This document shows, one piece after another, positions 3,239-15,230 of a stretch of DNA of 46,017 bases (position 1 is the first letter of the stretch; the number at the start of each line of letters is the position of its first letter). The DNA is taken from the sequence record NC_073056.1; one strand, given 5' to 3'. A program made the position numbers and the translations under genes. This DNA is from Escherichia phage rolling. The notes under the pieces are model-generated. The model worked only from the letters and a program-made list of their open reading frames with translations, was not told the origin of the DNA and did not search any database.

Positions 3239-3930
3239 TTTAAATTTCCCTCATTGACTGCTATTGCGAAGCCGCGCGGAGTGAGCGACCGTATTAATTT
3301 GGTGCGGGCAGATTTGCCACCGAGGCGACTATACTGCTTCGAGTACCCTTTTTCAACGAATACCGGCTTTTTCTCCGGCATACGAAAGCCGTTGCCGGTC
3401 CATAAACAGGTCAGCTTTGGATATGAATCGCGGTCGTTGATGTATTCTGGGAACAACGGGTGCGCGTCATCCTCCGGCAGATAGCCGCCATACTCCCACG
3501 GGTCAAACGAGTGGTCTGGCTTGCGCCACTGGGTGGACAGCACACTGCGCGGATTCTCAATCATATATGGCACTTCAAAGAAGTCACCCAGGTAAGCGGC
3601 AATCTTCGCGGTGCGCACGGCCTTAAGCTGAAAGGCGGGGTCTTTCGCACGCTTACGCGGGAACGCGGGCGCACCGCTCACCGCCAGATCCGTGCACGGT
3701 GGGAAAGCGTAGATGACGTCTGGCGTACCAAAATCGCCATTCATAGCGCGGTCTACGAAGTCCAGATCGATAAACTCATTGCGATAGCGGATGCCACGCC
3801 CATAGATACGGTAGTCGAGGTAAGACCCGTGATCGGCTTCGGAGTAGTTGAAACAGTAGCATTTATGCCCCATCTCGGCAGCACGCTCTACCATCAAGCC
3901 GCTGCCGTCAAATAATGACCAGATAATCAC
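3235..3930 (-). CDS. Compact DNA (cytosine-5)-methyltransferase-like protein (231 aa)
   Basis: Motif I-like SLFDGSG, motif IV-like FPPCTDLAVSG, motif VI-like MIENPRSV in canonical order; shorter than typical C5-MTases. Confidence 0.55.
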   Translation of the reverse strand: MIIWSLFDGSGLMVERAAEMGHKCYCFNYSEADHGSYLDYRIYGRGIRYRNEFIDLDFVDRAMNGDFGTPDVIYAFPPCTDLAVSGAPAFPRKRAKDPAFQLKAVRTAKIAAYLGDFFEVPYMIENPRSVLSTQWRKPDHSFDPWEYGGYLPEDDAHPLFPEYINDRDSYPKLTCLWTGNGFRMPEKKPVFVEKGYSKQYSRLGGKSARTKLIRSLTPRGFAIAVNEGNLK

Positions 3931-5351
3931 TTGCGCACCTTCTTAGCTTTCATGTATTCCATCAAATCGTCCTGAATATCGCGCTTACCGTCGCGGCGGT
4001 CTGCCACCAGTTCGTCCAGTGTCCCGCGTGCCTGGATAATGTAGACGAATACCGGTCGAGGGTGTCCGGCTTGCATCTGGCGTACCGGCCCGATACGCTC
4101 CACGATCTGCGCAAAGTGCTCATAGTTCCACGTATCCGAGAAGATAGCCAGGTGATGACCGCCGTCCTGCAAGTTGAGGCCGTGACCCGCCGATGCTGGG
4201 TGTGCGAACATGATGGGGATCTCGCCCCTGTTCCACGCTTCCACATCCTTATTGCCCTGCTTGCCTTTACCCATCGCAACGCCGTGGGGAAACTTCTTCT
4301 TCAGACGTGCCAGGTCGTGCTTGTACTGATACGCAACGAGCAACGGCGCGCCGTTCAACTCTTCTACGATACTTTCCAGCGCGTCCAGCTTGGCGTCGTG
4401 AATCTTCACCCACTCGTCGGTCCGTTCGCCGTCCTCGTCTACCTTATACACGGCACCGGAAGCAAGCTGGAGGCACTTGATGGTCTTCGCCGCAGCGTTC
4501 GCCGCTTCCACTGTTCCGCTTTCCAGTTCGGCAAATAGCTCGCTCTCAAACTGGTCGTAAATCTTGCGGGCTTTCTTCGGCAGGTCCACAACAACCGGCG
4601 TGTAGATGGGCTTGTCACATCCGAAGTATTCAGCCGCGTCCACGGTAAGGGATACATCGGACAGGCGTTGTTGGATCTCCTTCTCGGAGTTCTTGAGCGG
4701 GGCGTGCTGCATAGTGAAGCTGCCGGGTTTAACAGGCTTGCTAATAAACCAGCGATCGGTGAATGCTTTATAACTACTACCGAGGCGTTCTCCACCGTCG
4801 ACAAACCACGTCTGCCCCCATAAGTCCTTCAGTCCGTTTGGTGCAGGTGTGCCGGTAAGGTTAATCCAACGATTGACGTGCTTATGTGCGATCGCCGCCA
4901 GTGCGCGTGCGCGCTTACTACCCTGCTTACTTCGGTAGCCTTTCAGCTTAGTGGATTCATCGGCAACAACGACCGTAAAGGGCCACTCGTCGCCGTAATA
5001 CTCGACAAGCCACTCAACCACATCATAGTTAACGCAAACCACGTTAGCGTTGCTCTCAAGCGCTGCAATGCGGTCTTTCTCTGGTCCGGTGCCGTCTACT
5101 ACCAGCAGGGCTGGGAATCTCCATTTTTCTTGTTCCGGGGGCCACGTACCTGACGCAACGCGCAGCGGGGCTAGCACCAGTACGCGGTCTTCCTGGTTGG
5201 ATAGGATGCCAGTCTGGAACATTTTGTTGAGCGCCCACATAGTCGCGCCGGTTTTACCAGACCCCATTGTCGCCCAAATATTACAACGTTCGTGCTTGAG
5301 AATAAACGCGGTTATCAATTTCTGATATTCGCGACGTCGGAAGCGTGCCAT
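3927..5351 (-). CDS. Superfamily 2 (SNF2/DEAD-like) helicase
   Basis: Walker A TMGSGKTG, DExx box VVADEST; start at internal ATG M31 of track ORF 3927..5441. Confidence 0.8.
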   Translation of the reverse strand: MARFRRREYQKLITAFILKHERCNIWATMGSGKTGATMWALNKMFQTGILSNQEDRVLVLAPLRVASGTWPPEQEKWRFPALLVVDGTGPEKDRIAALESNANVVCVNYDVVEWLVEYYGDEWPFTVVVADESTKLKGYRSKQGSKRARALAAIAHKHVNRWINLTGTPAPNGLKDLWGQTWFVDGGERLGSSYKAFTDRWFISKPVKPGSFTMQHAPLKNSEKEIQQRLSDVSLTVDAAEYFGCDKPIYTPVVVDLPKKARKIYDQFESELFAELESGTVEAANAAAKTIKCLQLASGAVYKVDEDGERTDEWVKIHDAKLDALESIVEELNGAPLLVAYQYKHDLARLKKKFPHGVAMGKGKQGNKDVEAWNRGEIPIMFAHPASAGHGLNLQDGGHHLAIFSDTWNYEHFAQIVERIGPVRQMQAGHPRPVFVYIIQARGTLDELVADRRDGKRDIQDDLMEYMKAKKVRK

Positions 5352-5355
5352 ATCT

Positions 5356-5580
5356 TTATTCCGCCTTTTTCCAGACTTCGGTTTCACTGTTCCAATTCCT
5401 CTTTGTGGCGTCGTAGTTGGTGTCGTGTCCGATGTGCACACCGGTCGAGCGGAAGCTTTTAAACTTCTGCCAGCACACCGTCAACGGCAGCGGGTCATTC
5501 ATGCCTGCGATAAACCACACGCGATCACCTGGTTTGCACTCGCCCAGCTTGGTGAGTCGGTAATGTTCTTTCATCGTCAT
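5356..5580 (-). CDS. Hypothetical small protein (about 74 aa)
   Basis: C-terminal part of track ORF 5356..5787 from internal ATG (M70); upstream part overlaps a better Zn-ribbon ORF in another frame; weak RBS. Confidence 0.4.
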   Translation of the reverse strand: MTMKEHYRLTKLGECKPGDRVWFIAGMNDPLPLTVCWQKFKSFRSTGVHIGHDTNYDATKRNWNSETEVWKKAE

Positions 5581-6302: not shown

Positions 6303-8594
6303 TTACTTCCTGTACCGGTACATAATGTCGCCTTCGGCGGCAAGTGGGAAACCTTTCGCCCATATAGGCAGGTCGCACATCAGCGCGCAAAGCTCCTCGG
6401 TCGTGTAGTCGTCGGTGTCCGGCACTTCCGTGATCAATTCATCGTGCACTGACAGGACGATTTCATAGCCCGCAGCTTCAACACCAGGCATGGACCATGC
6501 GAGAATATCGCGGCACAACGCCTGTACGATGTTCTCCGTAAGTTTGCCGCCGTAGGTGTACTGGAATCCCCACTGGCGCGTCGTCTGATTCTCGCCCTGG
6601 TATTTGATGCGGGTACTGGTGCGCTTCTTGCCGGTGTCTTCGTCAATTTCAGTCGTGACAGACAGCGCGATGCCGGGGTAGCTCATGATGCGCCCCGACG
6701 GCAACTCAATTTTCAACCACCACCCCGCGGCGTTCGGGTCGTCGCGCTCCTCGTCGAAGGTTGGGTCGTGCTTCGCCTTCGTGCGCACAATCTTGAGCGC
6801 TTTCCTACCGTCCGGGCGAACGTTCGCGCCAGCCCAGTATGCTTTACCCGGATTGCGGATTGCACACAGCACCGCTTCCTCAAGCTCGGCCCAAAAGGCT
6901 ACGGTCTTCGGGTGCGACTCACGCCACATACGTTTGATCGCGTCGCAGGTCAACCACACGTTTTTAGGCAGTATGTAGGTTGGGCGCTCGTCTTTCTTGC
7001 CAGGCTTCGGCGGGCGCTTCGCTTCGTTGATGCGGGCAAACTCATAGCCACGCTTCGCCGCCGCCCAAATGTGATCGGGGAATGTTCCCTTCATTACGTC
7101 AGCCATCGCGTACAGGTCGAGGCCCAGGTTTTTAGCGAACTGCAAGAACGCAGCAACGCCGCCACCATATCCCAGTCCCAATTCACACGCCTTACCAATC
7201 TGGCGTAGGTCTTTGCGGTTGGCCTTGATGTAGTCCGGGTCGAGGCCGAACATCTTACCGGCAGTTTCACAATAGATATCGCGTCCGGCCTTAAACACCA
7301 TTAGCGCGGTTTTCTCGCCCGCGATCCAGGCAAGGCCGCGCCCTTCCACGTTGGAGTAGTCCGCTACGACAAACTTCTTGCCCTTAGCCGGGATAATGCA
7401 CCCGCGAACGGTCGAGGCGGTTAGCTTCGATATGTCATACGCCCAGTGTGCGGTACCGCGTAACAGGGAGTTGATGCCGTTGGTGAGCATATGAGATCGG
7501 ACCCAAAACGAAACGTCGCTCTCACCTTCTCGGCGCTTAATCTTCCCTTCGTGGTCATCACTGTACTCGCCACGTGCCAGGTTTTGAGGCTGAAAGCCTT
7601 TACCGGCCCAGCGTAGTGTGCGCTTTGCCCCACCGTACTGAAGACAACCACGGCGGCGACCATCGGCAGACAGGCCATTTACGAGCGGATTGTATTTAGT
7701 CGATGCCGTTGATGACGCACCGAGGCGCATCTCAATAAGCACTTTGCCCTCGTCGGGGAAGTCTGGATCTTCCAGCAAGTCATTCAGCGTGGATTTCTGC
7801 GCGTTGTGAATTGTGAACGCCGGGGCAATATCACGCAGGATTGGCAGGAAGTCATTGCCAGTCAGCTTACCGCCGAACAGTTCCCAGGCTTCTTCCTTCA
7901 ATTCCTCTTTATGCACCTGCACCGCCTTGATCGCGGCGTTAGCCAGGTCAACGTCCACATAGAAGCCACGGTCGTTAATCAACTGGTCAATAAGCAGGAT
8001 TTCGTCTTCCTTCGGCGTGTTACCCCAGTCCGGTATGCGCCAGTAGACTTCACGCATTGCGATAATATCCAGCGCGGCATAGCGCAGGAATTTAGCCCAT
8101 TCTTCCGGGTGTGTGTCGCGGGTGTAGCGGCGGATTTTGTAGGTCTTAGGGGTAGGCTTACAGAATCGTTTGATCAGCGCCTTGCCAGCCTTATCCTTCG
8201 CGTGCTCTGCGTCAACGCCCAGTACCCGGCATTGCATATCAAGACTACCCGGCAGCGCATGTCGGAAGGCCATAATCATGGTATCTTCGATCTGGCTTAC
8301 CGGCAGGTCAATACCCCACTTTTCACGGATAACCAGGCGGTCAAACAGGAGGCCGTTCGCCATCACTATTTTTGCTTTTTTGCGGGTTACCTGGCGGAGC
8401 GCCTTGCGTAGTTCACGCGGCATCGTGGGAGATTCAGTGGCGTCCCATGTCTGCACGCGGCCCTCGTCTATGGCGTAGGTGCAAATCATAATCTCGGTGG
8501 TGGGGTGTTCCGCGTAGGCATACGCACCTGCTTTCTTCAGGTCCACCCCGCTAAACGTCTCGGTGTCGAGAAATAGGCGTTCGAAGTCTTTCAT
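6303..8594 (-). CDS. DNA polymerase, family A, with 3'-5' exonuclease domain
   Basis: Exo I motif FLDTETFSG; Pol motif A DYSNVEGR, motif B KACELGLGYGG, motif C SVHDELITEV. Confidence 0.95.
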   Translation of the reverse strand: MKDFERLFLDTETFSGVDLKKAGAYAYAEHPTTEIMICTYAIDEGRVQTWDATESPTMPRELRKALRQVTRKKAKIVMANGLLFDRLVIREKWGIDLPVSQIEDTMIMAFRHALPGSLDMQCRVLGVDAEHAKDKAGKALIKRFCKPTPKTYKIRRYTRDTHPEEWAKFLRYAALDIIAMREVYWRIPDWGNTPKEDEILLIDQLINDRGFYVDVDLANAAIKAVQVHKEELKEEAWELFGGKLTGNDFLPILRDIAPAFTIHNAQKSTLNDLLEDPDFPDEGKVLIEMRLGASSTASTKYNPLVNGLSADGRRRGCLQYGGAKRTLRWAGKGFQPQNLARGEYSDDHEGKIKRREGESDVSFWVRSHMLTNGINSLLRGTAHWAYDISKLTASTVRGCIIPAKGKKFVVADYSNVEGRGLAWIAGEKTALMVFKAGRDIYCETAGKMFGLDPDYIKANRKDLRQIGKACELGLGYGGGVAAFLQFAKNLGLDLYAMADVMKGTFPDHIWAAAKRGYEFARINEAKRPPKPGKKDERPTYILPKNVWLTCDAIKRMWRESHPKTVAFWAELEEAVLCAIRNPGKAYWAGANVRPDGRKALKIVRTKAKHDPTFDEERDDPNAAGWWLKIELPSGRIMSYPGIALSVTTEIDEDTGKKRTSTRIKYQGENQTTRQWGFQYTYGGKLTENIVQALCRDILAWSMPGVEAAGYEIVLSVHDELITEVPDTDDYTTEELCALMCDLPIWAKGFPLAAEGDIMYRYRK

Positions 8595-8761
8595 TGCTTT
8601 ATCCTCACTACGGCGTCAGCGCTGCCGATCATGGAGAAGATTCCGTCGGAAAGGGCAATCTCTTCGCCGTTGTTGCGAATCTCGGCAACGGTAAAATACT
8701 CGCCCAGCAATTTGGACCACACACGCATTCCGACTTTTACTTCACTGGCTTTAATACGCAT
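8591..8761 (-). CDS. Hypothetical small protein (about 56 aa), translationally coupled to DNA polymerase
   Basis: Read by eye (below track cutoff): MRIKASEVKVGMRVW...; stop overlaps pol ATG in ATGA; AGGA RBS. Confidence 0.45.
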   Translation of the reverse strand: MRIKASEVKVGMRVWSKLLGEYFTVAEIRNNGEEIALSDGIFSMIGSADAVVRIKQ

Positions 8762-8773
8762 TTTTCATTGTCC

Positions 8774-8801
8774 TAATAAAAAGCCCGCATTAAGCGGGCT
8801 T
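8774..8801 (-). terminator. Intrinsic terminator/attenuator between SSB gene and polymerase
   Basis: Minus-strand hairpin AAGCCCGC/GCGGGCTT followed by U-rich tract. Confidence 0.5.
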
Positions 8802-8819
8802 GAATAGTGGGCTTTGCCC

Positions 8820-9599
8820 TTAACGGCGGCGACGTTTACGTGGTGCTTCGTCTTCGTCGTCTTCGTCCTCATCTTCGTCATCGCGGGACTTACGACGTTT
8901 ACGCGGCTTATCGTCTTCATCGTCGTCATCTTCATCACGGCGGCGCTTAGACTTGCGCGGTTTTTCATCTTCATCATCGTCGTCACGACGTTTTGACTTT
9001 TTGGATTTACGCGGTGCTTCGTCTTCGTCATCATCCAGGTCGTCGTCAGAGCAATATGCACCGCCGCCGCCACCGAAGGAATCCCCATCATCACGGAAGC
9101 GCATACCCAGCAGACCACAGCCTAAGCCTTTGCCGTTGGTATTGTTCCAGGCCCAAATATCTAAGGAAACGTTGCAATAGCAACCGGAATAGATTTCTTT
9201 CCCTTCGATTTCGTCGCCGTCGATGGTCAGACCCTGCTCCGTCTGCTTCTCGCCTTCGGAAGTCTGGATGATCGGCTGTTTGAATGATTTAGCGTTGATA
9301 TACAGCTTACCTTCAAACTCTTCCGTTACTTCTTCACGCTCATCACCATCTCGAACGGCACATTCTTTCGAATCCTGCGCGTAGTGGCGGTCCATCCACT
9401 TATCGGCGTTCTTCTCAGACTTCAGTTTTTCGGTGAGCACTGCGCGTGCCGCCGCTTCCACTTTGTCCACCTGCGGATCTTCTTTATCAAGAATAATCAC
9501 CGCACGATATGCCGGTTTTTGTCCATCCTGTTTAGGGGTATCACGCTCCCAAATTTTCAGGAAGCATACACGTACATTTTTCAGGTTGACTTTAGCCAT
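8820..9599 (-). CDS. SSB-like protein, DUF2815 family, with unusual alternating acidic/basic C-terminal tail
   Basis: N-terminus MAKVNLKNVRVCF...GQKPAYRAVIIL resembles DUF2815 phage SSB; start at internal ATG (M32) with GAGGA RBS; last ~76 aa are D/E blocks alternating with PRKxKxRR blocks. Confidence 0.7.
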   Translation of the reverse strand: MAKVNLKNVRVCFLKIWERDTPKQDGQKPAYRAVIILDKEDPQVDKVEAAARAVLTEKLKSEKNADKWMDRHYAQDSKECAVRDGDEREEVTEEFEGKLYINAKSFKQPIIQTSEGEKQTEQGLTIDGDEIEGKEIYSGCYCNVSLDIWAWNNTNGKGLGCGLLGMRFRDDGDSFGGGGGAYCSDDDLDDDEDEAPRKSKKSKRRDDDDEDEKPRKSKRRRDEDDDDEDDKPRKRRKSRDDEDEDEDDEDEAPRKRRRR

Positions 9600-9654
9600 T
9601 TTCCAATTCCTCATTTCACATGTATCGGGGTTATTAGAAGCCACCCCGTCCGGC

Positions 9655-9678
9655 TTGGTTGCTAATGTACTTGGTTGC
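9655..9678. promoter_or_regulatory. Pair of TTGGTTGC motifs in SSB upstream region
   Basis: TTGGTTGC at 9655-9662 and 9671-9678, between membrane protein gene and SSB gene. Confidence 0.4.
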
Positions 9679-9695
9679 GTTTCCGCGGTCAAGTG

Positions 9696-9929
9696 TTATT
9701 TATCAAAAAGTTTTAAAATCAGGTCGAGATATTTGTGCAGCCACACCAGTGGTGGGCGGTGCACGTTGTTTCCCATCCAGTTCAAACAGGCTTCGTTATA
9801 GCCGTCGTCCCATAAGCGGGATGGGTGGCGAATCATCCAGGCCAGCGCCAGCAGACCGCCGCAGGTATGTACTACGAATCCCAGCGCCGCAAGCGGCAGC
9901 ACCATAATCATTGCCAGAATCTTATTCAT
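9696..9929 (-). CDS. Small membrane protein (77 aa)
   Basis: Internal ATG (M43 of track ORF 9696..10055) 3 nt after upstream stop; hydrophobic ILAMIMVLPLAALGFVV... segment. Confidence 0.5.
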   Translation of the reverse strand: MNKILAMIMVLPLAALGFVVHTCGGLLALAWMIRHPSRLWDDGYNEACLNWMGNNVHRPPLVWLHKYLDLILKLFDK

Positions 9930-11352
9930 CGCCCAAATCCTCGTCGCTTGCTTCTTGCCATTCCGGGCGCGGGTCGTCAACTGGTGCCAGGACCGGTTTC
10001 GCCGGCGCACGCGTGATTTTATCTTGCAGTTTCGCCCACACTTTCGGTTTCTCATCCTTCAGCACCTTCTCGGCATCAGTAGGGCTGATTAATGATTCCT
10101 TGTACATCAGGTCGCGCTTGATCCGGGCCGTTGTGAATACAGCGATAACTTCGCTTTCATCCTTCCACTTACGCGCACCTTCACGACCAGCTACCAGCTT
10201 CAGGCCCAGCGCTTCGCCGTCACCGGCTAACACTGCTTTGAATACGGCAGTCTCGATCGCTTTGATGTGCTGGCGCATGGTTTCCAGGCCGTCGTAAGCC
10301 TTCTTCAGTTCTTCCGTGGTCATAGCACCGGCTGGCGCTTCTTTCTTGCCACGCTTCGCACGTCGGGCAGCTTTCCGGGCTTCGAGGTCCATGTTCTGGT
10401 CGTGGTTTTTGCATTCTTCCTCGGCGGCAATGCTTACATCGTCGCCCAGGTCTTCGTCGGTTGCCGTTGGTGGCGTCATTGTGTCGATGGCGGCTTTAGC
10501 GCGGGAACTACATTGGTCCGCAAATCGACACCACTGACACGCATCGGCGCTCGGACGGAAGTCTGCACGGGTGAGATTCTTCTTACCCTTAGCGAGGGCA
10601 TCCAGGGCGGCTACTGCGCGTTTTGCTGCGTACTTGGCGAAGATTTCCAGTGCTTCCACCGAAATATCCCACTCCGACGCCCCGCCGCAATACGGCTGGA
10701 ATATGACCAGGCGCACGGTTGTTATGTCGTACATCTTTTGCAGCTTGCGCAGCAGTCCGAGCGCATACAGCATAAGCTGTTTGTTCTCTTTCGCCTCGAC
10801 CTTATGGCGCCCGGTCTTCAGGTCGCCCACAATGAGCATGTACGTGCCGTCGGTCTTCTTCATTACCATAACCATATCGGCAGTACCGAAGGTCTTGATC
10901 GCTTCGCCGTCAATCTCGTAGCCTTTGTGCAGGACGCGAGTCAGATCCGCGCGCATCTCAAGCTGTACAAACTCGGCAACTTCAAGCAGCGGTCGCCAGT
11001 GGTCGATGTACGCGTCGCACTGTTTCACCATGTCGTCAGTTACCAGGATGGCGTCCTTAGGTGCTTTAGCTGCCGCTTTAACTGGTCCTTTACCCTGATT
11101 TTCGACGTAGCACCCTTTATATGTCTTCGCCGTGATGTGGTCTTCGCCTGCAATGATGCGGTTTAGTACCACTTCAGATACGGTGTGCATACTCGTACCG
11201 TTGATCGCGGCTTGCCCGGATTCGTTCGGAATACCTTTCTCCACCACCAGGGCGGCGGGACACCCCATCCATTTTTTAGCGCCGGATGGGCCGAGTAATG
11301 AGTGTTCTGTATTACTGCCGGATTGCGTCTTGCGCTTCGCTTTGATAGCCAT
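9922..11352 (-). CDS. PD-(D/E)xK nuclease, DUF2800/Cas4-like (phage exonuclease)
   Basis: N-terminal LLGPSGAKKWMGCP, GDLKTG, C-terminal Cys cluster CQWCRFADQC; conserved neighbour of DUF2815 and pol A. Confidence 0.75.
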   Translation of the reverse strand: MAIKAKRKTQSGSNTEHSLLGPSGAKKWMGCPAALVVEKGIPNESGQAAINGTSMHTVSEVVLNRIIAGEDHITAKTYKGCYVENQGKGPVKAAAKAPKDAILVTDDMVKQCDAYIDHWRPLLEVAEFVQLEMRADLTRVLHKGYEIDGEAIKTFGTADMVMVMKKTDGTYMLIVGDLKTGRHKVEAKENKQLMLYALGLLRKLQKMYDITTVRLVIFQPYCGGASEWDISVEALEIFAKYAAKRAVAALDALAKGKKNLTRADFRPSADACQWCRFADQCSSRAKAAIDTMTPPTATDEDLGDDVSIAAEEECKNHDQNMDLEARKAARRAKRGKKEAPAGAMTTEELKKAYDGLETMRQHIKAIETAVFKAVLAGDGEALGLKLVAGREGARKWKDESEVIAVFTTARIKRDLMYKESLISPTDAEKVLKDEKPKVWAKLQDKITRAPAKPVLAPVDDPRPEWQEASDEDLGDE

Positions 11353-12968: not shown

Positions 12969-15230
12969 ATGAGAGATTATTTAATTGAGTTCGGCACCGT
13001 CGGCGGTAAATACGGCAAACGTGTTAAAAACCATTCTATGACTGAAGCCGAGTTTATGGAATACGTCGCTGATACCGTTGAATTATCCAGCGTAACCATT
13101 ACCGGCGACGAGACTAAGAAAGAATACGACGAGGTGAAAGGCAAGGCGGAAGGCATTGTCGCCACCACTAAAGGCCGGGGACGTCGTGCTACGGAAGTGG
13201 GTGTCCGTTCCGTACTGTTCTATGACCTGGACCGCACTGACAACCGTACCCTCGGTCGCGTTAAGCGTGCCTTTCGCAAATCCGGCTTATCCCACGTCTA
13301 CTACTCCACTACAGGCGACCGCCACCCGCTGAAGGGCGGCACACGTTGCGCCCGTTTCCTGGTGCTCACTGATAAACCGGTTGATGTTTCCGATTTAGGC
13401 CGTGCGCAGTTCGCACTATTGAAACACCTGGGGCTGGAAGACGTGCCGTTTGATGATTGCACAAAAAACGTTAACAACCTGCAATTCCTCCCCCATTCCG
13501 GATCTACCGTGTCGTGTCATCCTGGCACGCCAGCCCGTGTCCGTCGTCTGCTTCGCCTGGCTGACAAGCTGGGAGTGGAGAAAGAGGAAGTACGCCGCGA
13601 ACTGACCCAGGGCGACGATGGCGTGGCGGACGGGATTCTGGATTGGTGCTTCCAGGCTGGCTTTGAACCACTGTCATCCGGTCGCGGTTATGAAGTGCCG
13701 TGCCCGAACGAGCACCTGCATAGCGGCGGCGGGTCGACGGCTATCATGGTTAAGGATGGCGAGATCCGTTTCAAGTGTATGCACACCGGAAACGAGTGCT
13801 GTTCCGAACTGAACAGACACCAGCACCTGGCGCTACGTCTTATAGGGATCCCGGACCACCTGAACGTCGAACCGCACAACATGTCACGTAAGCAAATCGC
13901 CGCCATTCTCCCTGGACTGGACGACGAGGAAGTCGAATCGTGCTATGAACATATTGTTGATGCAGTTGGCGACGGCGAAGAATACGGCGTGTGCACCGAT
14001 GCGGATCTGGATAACGAGCCGGTCGCACTCTTCAGTAAGCACGACCCGATCATAGAAGGCCTGGTAAACTTCAAATCGACCTGGTACATGGCTGGCGAGT
14101 CGAACATCGGTAAATCGTTCTACGTGCTGGGGCAAATGGGCGCGGTTGCCGCGGGGATTCCGTTCGGTGGCGCGAAGGTAGTCCAGTCTCATTGCTTCTA
14201 TTTCGACGCGGAAGGTGGTGAAGCCTCCAACCAGCGTAAAGAAGCATTGCAGATTAAATACGAGCACGACCTGGACAAGCTGCACATTATCGATCTGCAA
14301 TCACGCGGCTGGGATATCACCAGCAAATCCGGCTTGCGTGAAGTTATCAGCTTCATCAACCGCACCGCTAACGGCGAGCCGGTTGGCCTGGTGGCGTTCG
14401 ACTCACTCAACCAGACTGTTGCGCTGCGGTCCGCCGATGCAAAACCGTTCGACGAGAATAACGCCAGCGATATGGGTGAAGTGGTCAAAGCGCTGAAGGC
14501 CATTGCGGAAAATACAGGCGGCAGTGCGGGCGTCATCCACCACCCAGCGAAGGGTGCAAACGGCAGCAGATCTCCCCGTGGGTCCGGCGCGCTTCATGGT
14601 GCTGTTGATTCTGCGTTCTTCCTGGAACAGCCGGATGACAACCAGCCAGGCCAACTCAACCTGTATCACGAAAAATCCCGTAACGGGATTAAGCAAGCGC
14701 CGCGTGGCTTCGTCCTGCTCAAATGCAAGGTGAAGGTGGATCTCCGTAAGTCCGAGGCGTTCGAAGCCCACCAGTCCACCAGCACCGGTCCGGACTTCGG
14801 CGATGTGGTTGCCGGTTGGGACGTCAAGCCAATTGCATCCACGCCACGCGACGAGACTCTCTACCTCGTACCGGTCGCCCTGGCACCGTTCGCTATCGAA
14901 CAGGCGAAGGCGGCTGGCAAGGCAGCAGTTAAGGAAGAGAACACCGCCGGTCCGCGCAACGAAAAAGAGAAAGTGCTTTATGCGGCGCTGGAAAAACTGA
15001 TGGAAGATAACCCGGACCATACCGGATTCAGTAAATCGGCAATTGTCCGCCAGGCAGGGCTGGCAAAAGGTGGCACTTCGACGAAGGCAATCGACGATAT
15101 GGTGGAGCGCGGAGTGATAGGTTTTTACACCGATCCGCACACCGGGGCCATCTATGGGTCGTCTAATTTGGTCATAAAAACGAATATACCCATCACGCTT
15201 TCGGCGACCGATGACGACCTGAAAGATTAA
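12969..15230 (+). CDS. Primase-helicase replication initiator (primase-polymerase N-domain, RecA-like ATPase, C-terminal winged-helix-like region)
   Basis: Walker A GESNIGKS, RecA-like AFDSLNQ / VIHHPAKG segments, C-terminal HTH-like tail. Confidence 0.85.
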   Translation: MRDYLIEFGTVGGKYGKRVKNHSMTEAEFMEYVADTVELSSVTITGDETKKEYDEVKGKAEGIVATTKGRGRRATEVGVRSVLFYDLDRTDNRTLGRVKRAFRKSGLSHVYYSTTGDRHPLKGGTRCARFLVLTDKPVDVSDLGRAQFALLKHLGLEDVPFDDCTKNVNNLQFLPHSGSTVSCHPGTPARVRRLLRLADKLGVEKEEVRRELTQGDDGVADGILDWCFQAGFEPLSSGRGYEVPCPNEHLHSGGGSTAIMVKDGEIRFKCMHTGNECCSELNRHQHLALRLIGIPDHLNVEPHNMSRKQIAAILPGLDDEEVESCYEHIVDAVGDGEEYGVCTDADLDNEPVALFSKHDPIIEGLVNFKSTWYMAGESNIGKSFYVLGQMGAVAAGIPFGGAKVVQSHCFYFDAEGGEASNQRKEALQIKYEHDLDKLHIIDLQSRGWDITSKSGLREVISFINRTANGEPVGLVAFDSLNQTVALRSADAKPFDENNASDMGEVVKALKAIAENTGGSAGVIHHPAKGANGSRSPRGSGALHGAVDSAFFLEQPDDNQPGQLNLYHEKSRNGIKQAPRGFVLLKCKVKVDLRKSEAFEAHQSTSTGPDFGDVVAGWDVKPIASTPRDETLYLVPVALAPFAIEQAKAAGKAAVKEENTAGPRNEKEKVLYAALEKLMEDNPDHTGFSKSAIVRQAGLAKGGTSTKAIDDMVERGVIGFYTDPHTGAIYGSSNLVIKTNIPITLSATDDDLKD

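Follow-up and report, generated by a model that had tools for sequence, protein, structure and literature searches.

A C-terminal tail of alternating acidic and basic blocks on the DUF2815-type single-stranded DNA-binding protein from Escherichia phage rolling and related siphophages

The 46,017-nucleotide (nt) DNA of Escherichia phage rolling (NC_073056.1; this whole stretch is referred to below as the window) carries on its minus strand a gene for an SSB, a protein that binds single-stranded DNA (ssDNA), whose C-terminal tail alternates between strongly acidic and strongly basic blocks. By sequence, the genome belongs to the genus Dhillonvirus (HK578-like phages): its DNA is 96.8% identical to that of Escherichia phage Ioannina and 80–97% identical to about 150 Dhillonvirus genomes. 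The SSB gene lies between genes for a DUF2800 nuclease and a family A DNA polymerase (PolA), all three on the minus strand (Table 1), in what has previously been described as the duf2800-gp2.5-polA module (PMC8093625).

Table 1. Features of the SSB locus and of related genes in the window of phage rolling (coordinates are positions in the window; protein tips are given up to the stop codon; aa, amino acids)
Feature	Coordinates	Strand	Basis or remark
SSB gene, 259 aa + stop, DUF2815 / Enc34-ORF6 / T7-gp2.5 type	8820..9599	minus	Open reading frame, PF10991, PHROG 112
OB-fold ssDNA-binding core, ~residues 1-176	9072..9599	minus	AF2 pLDDT, Foldseek
Gly-rich hinge GGGGGAYC, core to tail	9051..9074	minus	Sequence; G-rich hinge family-wide; pLDDT <50 at residues 177-181
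Predicted disordered blocky polyampholyte tail, 76 aa, four units	8823..9050	minus	Sequence, AF2
Tail unit 1: SDDDLDDDEDE + APRKSKKSKRR	8985..9050	minus	Sequence
Tail unit 2: DDDDEDE + KPRKSKRRR	8937..8984	minus	Sequence; middle unit, variable among relatives
Tail unit 3: DEDDDDEDD + KPRKRRKSR	8883..8936	minus	Sequence; middle unit, variable among relatives
Tail unit 4: DDEDEDEDDEDE + APRKRRRR	8823..8882 (APRKRRRR 8823-8846)	minus	Arg-rich end where a hydrophobic tip is canonical
Proximal acidic-Leu motif S-D-D-D-L-D-D-D, candidate docking motif	9027..9050 (core pattern 9036-9050)	minus	Conservation, covariation
DUF2800 / PD-(D/E)XK (Cas4-like) nuclease	9922..11352	minus	PF10926, E 4.8e-69
Nuclease linker motif TDEDL	10447-10461	minus	Motif scan
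Nuclease C-terminal tip ..EASDEDLGDE	motif 9934-9948	minus	Motif scan
Helicase-primase C-terminal tip ..SATDDDLKD	15207..15221 (gene 12969-15230)	plus	Motif scan, PHROG 3228
Family A DNA polymerase, third module member, candidate docking partner	6303..8594	minus	PF00476
Sigma-70-like promoter TTGACC-17-TACATT, upstream of SSB gene	9664..9692	minus	Consensus match
Intrinsic-terminator-like hairpin AAGCCCGC-TTAAT-GCGGGCTT + T run, 19 nt past SSB stop	8781..8801	minus	Consensus match

The long open reading frame (ORF) of the gene (8820-9692) opens at a TTG at 9692 and ends with a stop codon at 8820-8822. Judging from its sequence context, the true start is most likely the ATG at 9599 (MAKVNLKNV...), which has GAGGA (9608-9612) 8 nt upstream, and not the TTG; the SSB is therefore 259 aa long. 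The initial annotation had called the product SSB-like and pointed to DUF2815, an identification that is supported. Against PF10991 (Enc34_ssDNA-bd, formerly DUF2815), the long ORF scored 108.7 bits (cutoff 26; E 3.4e-31) over its residues 34-223. The sequence also matched PHROG 112 ([quoted passage not shown]; E 3.7e-51) and the PDB chains 4KLK, 4JG2, and 5ODJ. An AlphaFold2 (AF2) model built on a 63-sequence alignment was confident throughout the core, with mean predicted local distance difference test (pLDDT) scores of 87-98 in 10-residue blocks over residues 1-170. Foldseek matched this model to 4KLK, to Enc34 ORF6 (5ODL/5ODJ/5ODK), to 4JG2, and to T7 gp2.5 (1JE5), with E values from 2e-12 to 3e-6. 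The hallmark of Enc34-type SSBs, an oligonucleotide/oligosaccharide-binding (OB) barrel with a long capping helix right after strand beta-2 (PMC5686142), is present in the model: after strands 2-20 and 30-38 come helices 43-59 and 62-72, all at pLDDT >87. A trait associated with the family is a preference for ssDNA, bound by way of two aromatic stacks and basic residues in the cleft. Residues Y137, G139, and C140 are invariant in the alignment. By sequence and by model, the protein is an OB-fold SSB of the DUF2815 / Enc34-ORF6 / T7-gp2.5 type. The profile match, the OB fold, and the gene neighborhood all fit membership in PF10991, whereas the purely acidic tail with an acidic-hydrophobic tip that goes with this family is not found here. 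The departure is peripheral, in that it lies in the tail and outside the family-defining domain.

The four units listed in Table 1, read in order, make up the complete tail. In each, an Asp/Glu block precedes one that opens with x-Pro-Arg-Lys and has Arg, Lys, and Ser in abundance. Translation of the minus-strand ORF reproduced exactly the tail residues quoted in the initial annotation, which had singled out the interleaved basic segments as unusual for an SSB. The tail contains 37 Asp/Glu, 27 Lys/Arg, 5 Ser, 4 Pro, 2 Ala, and 1 Leu, so that 0.84 of its residues are charged; the net charge is -10, or -0.13 per residue. These charges are segregated far more than expected by chance: kappa is 0.55 compared with 0.10 ± 0.04 in 5000 shuffles (maximum 0.37; 0/5000 reach 0.55), and the sign of the charge switches 7 times along the tail versus 31 expected (shuffle minimum 18). 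A scan of all six frames of the 46-kb window found the SSB tail to be the sole segment of this kind. In the AF2 model, block means of pLDDT stay at 42-63 between residue 171 and the C-terminus, and a three-residue helix (185-187) at the D-D-L motif is the tail's only secondary structure; the tail is thus predicted to be intrinsically disordered. With its high charged fraction, charges of both signs, segregation well beyond random, and predicted disorder, it fits the class of blocky strong polyampholyte disordered regions. The units are also recognizable in the DNA, where Tandem Repeats Finder reports a 57-nt period (8854-8981; 2.3 copies, 78% matches). The four P-R-K triplets are encoded by CCG-CGT-AAA, CCG-CGC-AAG, CCG-CGT-AAA, and CCA-CGT-AAA.

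We compared the tail across 228 homologues, drawn from a word-indexed search (82 sequences), 150 representatives at 50% identity among 2033 matches, and 5 phage proteins. Tails were read directly from individual loci, since the low-complexity filter masks the tail in full-protein tblastn, and basic blocks were called with an arbitrary threshold. A single-protein scan of viral contigs returned Dhillonvirus relatives only, and more distant phages were added by accession. The interleaved basic segments are indeed unusual for the family: most of the ~180 homologues outside the query's clade have a short, purely acidic tail of ~20-35 residues with a hydrophobic end, and the tail of Enc34 ORF6 is purely acidic as well. 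In the typical DUF2815 tail, the Gly hinge is followed by a proximal D-[DE]-F-x-[DE]-[LIV] motif, and the end is acidic-hydrophobic, as in ..DDLV, ..EDFV, or ..DDIPW. An approximate neighbor-joining tree of the OB domains placed the query within one contiguous group of 43 sequences, every one of which has an alternating tail. This clade comprises Dhillonvirus, Guernseyvirinae (Jerseyvirus, Kagunavirus, and Cornellvirus), Serratia phage Smarc3, and metagenomic proteins. Its isolated phages share 36-57% OB-domain identity with the query, and identity goes down to 42% in the word-indexed set of 82. Conservation among DUF2815 homologues, the check that had been suggested for the tail, came out in its favor, as the alternating pattern persists to ~36-40% OB-domain identity; the tail is common to the whole enterobacterial siphophage clade and not special to phage rolling. 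All 43 clade tails are charge-segregated relative to shuffles (z = 4.1-11.3), 42 of them have a negative net charge (median -7), and the number of basic blocks ranges from 1 to 5. The minimal tail, found in Jerseyvirus and Kagunavirus, is a single unit (e.g., ..SVDDLEDDEDE-TPRRERRRNR). In most of the clade, the terminus is basic, an Arg run replacing the hydrophobic tip. Several in-clade tails (P0016, with a net charge of +8, P0090, P0186, and P0084) are rich in Lys, Ala, and Pro and resemble histone H1.

Within the genus, we examined 16 Dhillonvirus sequences, whose tails vary from 42 to 79 aa through in-frame indels and are all in frame. The first and last units (..DEDEAPRKRRRR) are nearly constant and the middle units come and go. 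Among relatives of the query, two-unit tails occur in L004 and P0003. The ending ..EAPRKRRRR is near-invariant in 15 of the 16, and the codons for D-x-D-L and for the terminal PRKRRRR differ mostly synonymously. In-frame indels, synonymous codon variation, and the differing P-R-K codons together indicate that the pattern is held at the protein level. Judged from these sequences, the comparison shows that the arrangement of charges is retained by selection even as the sequence and the number of units drift; the units grow and shrink in number via in-frame repeat recombination. Most other homologues having a short acidic tail with a hydrophobic end, the alternating tail is a derived state within DUF2815. 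Alternating tails also appear in separate branches of the tree (P0136/P0138; P0216/P0193/P0177; P0162; P0065/P0077; P0221), and this recurrence argues for selection rather than accident. Several of these retain a hydrophobic tip (..DDDI, ..DDLV, ..DDLM), and in them the alternating part forms an inserted linker. Among the out-of-clade tails are some exotic ones: that of P0177 is 175 aa long and rich in Arg-Asp and Arg-Ser, and those of P0216 and P0193 consist of DDDDDD-RRSSRRR repeats.

One deposited genome departs from this picture. In phage vB_EcoS-22664B1 (MZ234008.1; locus L022, coding sequence 366-1175), the tail is out of frame (..MTKMKHRARLRSPNVV..) and runs beyond the usual stop. A single base is missing there in gacGACgat, where there is no homopolymer, and adding it back gives a perfect three-unit tail. 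Because one added base restores a flawless tail, we regard the frameshift as an error or a very recent mutation. The SSB tail of P0008 is likewise in a shifted frame (..MTKMKHRARLRSPNVV..) that runs beyond the usual stop, and the tails of both P0002 and P0008 read in the frame of the minus-strand ORF 8765-9118. Inspection of the alternative frames and of P0002, P0008, and 22664B1 yielded no evidence of programmed frameshifting at the SSB tail. The frames that overlap the tail, namely 8765-9118 (minus; rich in Met, Thr, and Lys) and 8814-8996 and 8953-9180 (plus; rich in Ser), have no family match and were rejected as genes; they stay open because GAY, GAA, and CGT codons repeat. A further irregularity concerns contig L001 (IMGVR_UViG_3300045988_003101), whose 3' end is cut off partway through the SSB tail. 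The final codons read AVSYTHLRAHET, as encoded by the Nextera adapter (..GCTGTCTCTTATACACATCTCCGAGCCCACGAGAC), which suggests adapter contamination at the contig end.

The proximal acidic-Leu motif extends beyond the SSB. Its D-x-D-L core is invariant in the 16 Dhillonvirus sequences, with codons that vary synonymously, is conserved through the whole clade, and stands where the family at large has D-[DE]-F. Translated in six frames, the window shows the pattern [ST][DE][DEN]DL at only four sites, all of them in the SSB, the nuclease, and the helicase-primase (Table 1). The expected number is 0.25 when nucleotides are shuffled and 0.12 when residues are shuffled within each protein. Without the SSB site, three occurrences remain where 0.11 would be expected (P = 0.0005). 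HK578 carries these four sites and none besides, and its helicase-primase tip is identical. The nuclease tip has the motif at 15 Dhillonvirus loci as well as in Smarc3 (..ASDEDLA), Jerseyvirus (..VTEDDLEA), and Kagunavirus (..VTEEDLE), and related helicase-primase tips occur in Smarc3 (ATHEDLE), Jerseyvirus (..EGDLE), and phage templet (TTEGDLE). In lineages whose SSB carries a D-x-F-type motif, the nuclease tip shifts too: DASNDFEELSD occurs with ..GADFEALD, PTDADFDEIEV with ..TSDFETEEM, and VNVDEEFEELD with ..VNVHEEFDSLDPE. This covariation between the SSB motif and the nuclease tip was significant across 8 lineages (matched sum 164 vs permutation mean 116.5; P = 0.0006) and across 6 independent lineages (P = 0.007).

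These sequence data are naturally read to mean that a single co-evolving site is bound by both the nuclease tip and the proximal motif of the SSB. In T7, the acidic tails of gp2.5 and of the helicase-primase gp4 both dock on the polymerase gp5, and the acidic tail of gp4 parallels the acidic-Leu motif common to the replication proteins of the query. By this analogy, the polymerase is one plausible candidate receptor; the other is the concave beta-sheet of the SSB itself. Crystals of Enc34 ORF6, 4JG2, 4KLK, and gp2.5 show the tail lying in an adjacent molecule's concave beta-sheet, burying 842 Å2 (PMC5686142). The nuclease of the window and of HK578 also contains a 37-aa insertion, VSIAAEEECKNHDQNMDLEARKAARRAKRGKKEAPAG (~10327-10437, minus strand), directly after the linker motif TDEDLGDD. 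This insertion runs from an acidic to a basic stretch in the manner of an SSB tail unit and is absent in seven other nucleases of the nine aligned.

Set against SSBs that have been characterized, the query shares much and differs mainly in its tail. Enc34 ORF6 (5ODJ/5ODK/5ODL) has in common with it PF10991, the fold, the layout of OB core, Gly hinge, and disordered tail, and the nuclease-SSB-polymerase module, although structure-based identity between the two is only ~19%. The tail of Enc34 ORF6 has ~29 residues and is purely acidic, with 16/29 Asp or Glu (PMC5686142), while that of the query has 76 residues, four basic blocks, and an Arg-rich end. T7 gp2.5 belongs to the same fold class (Foldseek E 1e-6) and is likewise annotated as both SSB and annealing protein; it has no significant sequence similarity to the query, and their kinship is via fold only. 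Its acidic tail vies with ssDNA for the binding cleft and also docks on replisome partners. Purely acidic, this tail has an essential Phe at its C-terminus, and the tip is needed for interaction with the polymerase, whereas the tail of the query lacks an aromatic or hydrophobic tip (it ends in RRRR) and contains 27 basic residues. NPM1, nucleolin, and HMGB1 (with its acidic tail), eukaryotic proteins in which acidic and basic tracts alternate, offer an analogy of sequence physics only, with no homology to the query: in them, acidic tracts and nucleic acid are rivals for the basic tracts, resulting in autoinhibition and multivalent self-association.

Charged or disordered elements of other SSBs offer functional analogies in different arrangements. 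T4 gp32 also combines in one SSB a basic K/R/S-rich element that mediates cooperative protomer contacts and an acidic domain that gates binding to DNA and partners (PMC12893549, PMC5892887). However, its fold is unrelated and its basic and acidic elements sit at opposite ends, whereas the query alternates them in one C-terminal tail. By inspection, the tail of the query contains no LAST motif of T4 gp32, (K/R)3(S/T)2; its blocks are of the type P-R-K-S-K-K-S-K-R-R. E. coli SSB (linker and tip; PMC11947617) and PRD1 P12 (tail; PMC11886824) resemble the query in having a disordered C-terminal region, which in them tunes cooperativity or condensation. The E. coli SSB linker is rich in Gly, Gln, and Pro, nearly uncharged, and followed by a DDDIPF tip, and the P12 region is a helix plus tail; neither is a blocky polyampholyte.

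The initial annotation had suggested that the tail may neutralize itself or bind nucleic acid or a partner. From the analogies above, we tentatively favor a reading in which the tail would regulate, by multivalent electrostatic contacts, how the SSB binds DNA, self-associates, and docks with partners. In the lineage of the query, the canonical short acidic tail would have been rebuilt as a net-acidic blocky polyampholyte with three parts: the conserved acidic-Leu motif S-D-D/E-D-L-x-D-D straight after the Gly hinge; zero to three duplicated units, each an acidic block and then a P-R/K-rich basic block; and an Arg-rich C-terminus, PRKRRRR, in place of the lost acidic-hydrophobic tip. The acidic parts, chiefly the D-D-L motif, would mimic ssDNA and fill the basic ssDNA-binding face in cis or in trans. 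Such occupation would keep free SSB off double-stranded DNA (dsDNA) and present a docking site to partners. We propose this suppression of dsDNA binding because deletion of the tail of Enc34 ORF6 confers dsDNA binding on the protein (PMC5686142). The basic blocks would add a second valence by contacting the DNA backbone and pairing with the acidic blocks of neighboring tails; their binding to DNA is suggested by the histone H1-like Lys/Ala/Pro-rich blocks of P0016, P0090, P0186, and P0084. The outcome would be tunable, salt-sensitive, multivalent SSB-SSB and SSB-DNA contacts that may serve cooperative coating, strand annealing, and possibly condensation, with their strength tuned over evolution by in-frame gain and loss of repeat units. 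A contribution of a disordered tail to cooperativity has been described for PRD1 P12 (PMC11886824).

A more far-reaching version, which we consider speculative and doubtful, is that the interaction code of the SSB has been rewired throughout the clade. In this case, the acidic-Leu motif (S/T-D/E-x-D-L) found in the tail of the SSB, at the helicase-primase tip, and in the two disordered ends of the nuclease would form a docking network converging on one receptor, either the OB face of the SSB or the polymerase. The block repeats and the Arg end would form a self-associating, DNA-condensing scaffold for a replication/recombination body, with the number of repeats as tuning knob.

Several observations weigh against the regulator that we favor. 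The middle units are clearly dispensable in nature, since natural relatives lack them, and multivalency is not essential because the one-unit tails of Jerseyvirus and Kagunavirus and the two-unit tails exist. Cornellvirus-type tails end acidic (..SYEDDE), and the Arg terminus is thus not clade-universal. If the out-of-frame tail of 22664B1 is real, then the polyampholyte part is not essential for growth. Moreover, autoinhibition, DNA contact, and pairing between tails are not separable from sequence, the homologue sample is biased toward relatives of the query, and the neighbor-joining tree is rough.

Some of the same evidence bears on other explanations. The basic blocks, above all the Arg-rich end, might instead constitute a new docking code that attaches the SSB to an acidic site on a partner, with DNA and SSB-SSB contacts being secondary; the site might lie on the polymerase or on the acidic tips with which the nuclease and helicase-primase end. 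The hydrophobic tip, essential in T7 gp2.5 and in E. coli SSB, is missing here. Its place is taken by the near-invariant ..EAPRKRRRR in Dhillonvirus and, among relatives, by ..PRRERRRR or ..RPRRRSR; the acidic ends of the clade's helicase-primase (..TDDDLKD) and nuclease (..SDEDLGDE) could pair with basic blocks. However, runs of Arg and Lys are generic binders and the acidic receptor site is only putative. Cornellvirus-type tails end acidic, and several out-of-clade lineages combine a hydrophobic tip with interleaved basic blocks, which there form an internal linker. We view a docking code as rather unlikely. A largely neutral low-complexity expansion, produced by slippage or unequal recombination in the GAY/GAA-rich tail, would leave only the proximal acidic motif with a function and the rest as tolerated spacer. 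The relatedness of the units in the DNA (57-nt period, 78% matches), a copy number of 1-5 among relatives and 2-4 inside one genus, and the out-of-frame tail of MZ234008.1 would all be expected from such a process. Against it, the pattern persists to ~36-40% core identity despite sequence turnover; 16/16 Dhillonvirus tails are in frame, with a near-invariant terminal unit and P-R-K codons that differ synonymously; similar tails have arisen independently in other DUF2815 branches; and slippage of acidic codons alone would not make and keep matched basic blocks. Neutral expansion seems to us unlikely.

The tail might also serve as a condensate scaffold, driving phase separation of the SSB, with or without DNA, into a replication/recombination compartment. 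Charge segregation promotes coacervation of polyampholytes in polymer physics, and the tail has a high kappa (0.55), a high charged fraction (0.84), and multivalent repeats. Condensates of E. coli SSB depend on its disordered region (PMC11947617). The one-unit tails of Jerseyvirus and Kagunavirus, on the other hand, offer little multivalency, and the net charge of -10 together with a monomeric or dimeric core may disfavor self-coacervation without DNA or polyamines; condensation as the main role of the tail is, in our view, quite improbable. A host-interaction or anti-defense role, in which tip loss and basic blocks would evade host SSB-interacting proteins or alter recognition by defense systems, is more improbable still. 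[quoted passage not shown] The explanation to which we give least credence is a DNA-level element, such as origin iterons or protein-binding sites in the gene, with the protein pattern as by-product. Tandem DNA repeats do lie in the coding sequence, and lambda has its origin iterons inside a replication gene. Here, however, the copies are only 78% alike and differ mainly synonymously with charge class kept, relatives with quite different DNA keep the protein pattern, and copy number varies freely. An iteron or other DNA-level repeat function was rejected because the differences from unit to unit and from phage to phage are for the most part synonymous or keep the charge.

The protein family, its fold, and the gene module were already known. 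The literature that we searched contained no description of the alternating tail, of the tip replacement, or of the motif common to SSB, nuclease, and helicase-primase. SSB C-terminal tails are hubs that organize replication, recombination, and repair proteins, and by the accepted rule they are acidic, with the tip hydrophobic. The clade described here breaks with this rule in a conserved manner and in a large, experimentally accessible group of coliphages and Salmonella phages, including Jersey-like phages and K-12-infecting Dhillonviruses kept in laboratory collections. Its natural series of one to five units provides a test of charge patterning against ssDNA binding, cooperativity, annealing, and partner recruitment, and the co-varying motif offers a testable contact map for the widespread but little-studied duf2800-gp2.5-polA module. 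These tails may also be relevant to recombineering tools derived from gp2.5-type annealing proteins and to the sensing of phage SSBs by defense systems.

The sequences flanking the SSB gene include a putative promoter and a terminator-like hairpin (Table 1). The sigma-70-like promoter is a consensus match only, found once where 1.1 such matches are expected, and is therefore weak evidence. The hairpin after the gene is also kept in phage 22664B1. Together, the two suggest a high-expression single-gene unit within the early/replication region. Further genes nearby encode an SNF2-type helicase (3927-5441) and the helicase-primase. Between the SSB terminator and the polymerase, there is a conserved ORF of 56 aa (8591-8761, minus strand) whose last 4 nt overlap the start of the polymerase gene; it lacks a match in Pfam and is annotated in HK578 as hypothetical, similar to Sodalis phage SO-1 gp40. 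Another ORF, of 119 aa (9696-10055, minus strand), lies between the nuclease and the SSB and overlaps the end of the nuclease gene. Because its match to PHROG 11211 covers residues 43-119 only, its product is probably an ~80-aa hydrophobic protein made from an internal Met, and 80 aa is the length annotated in 22664B1.

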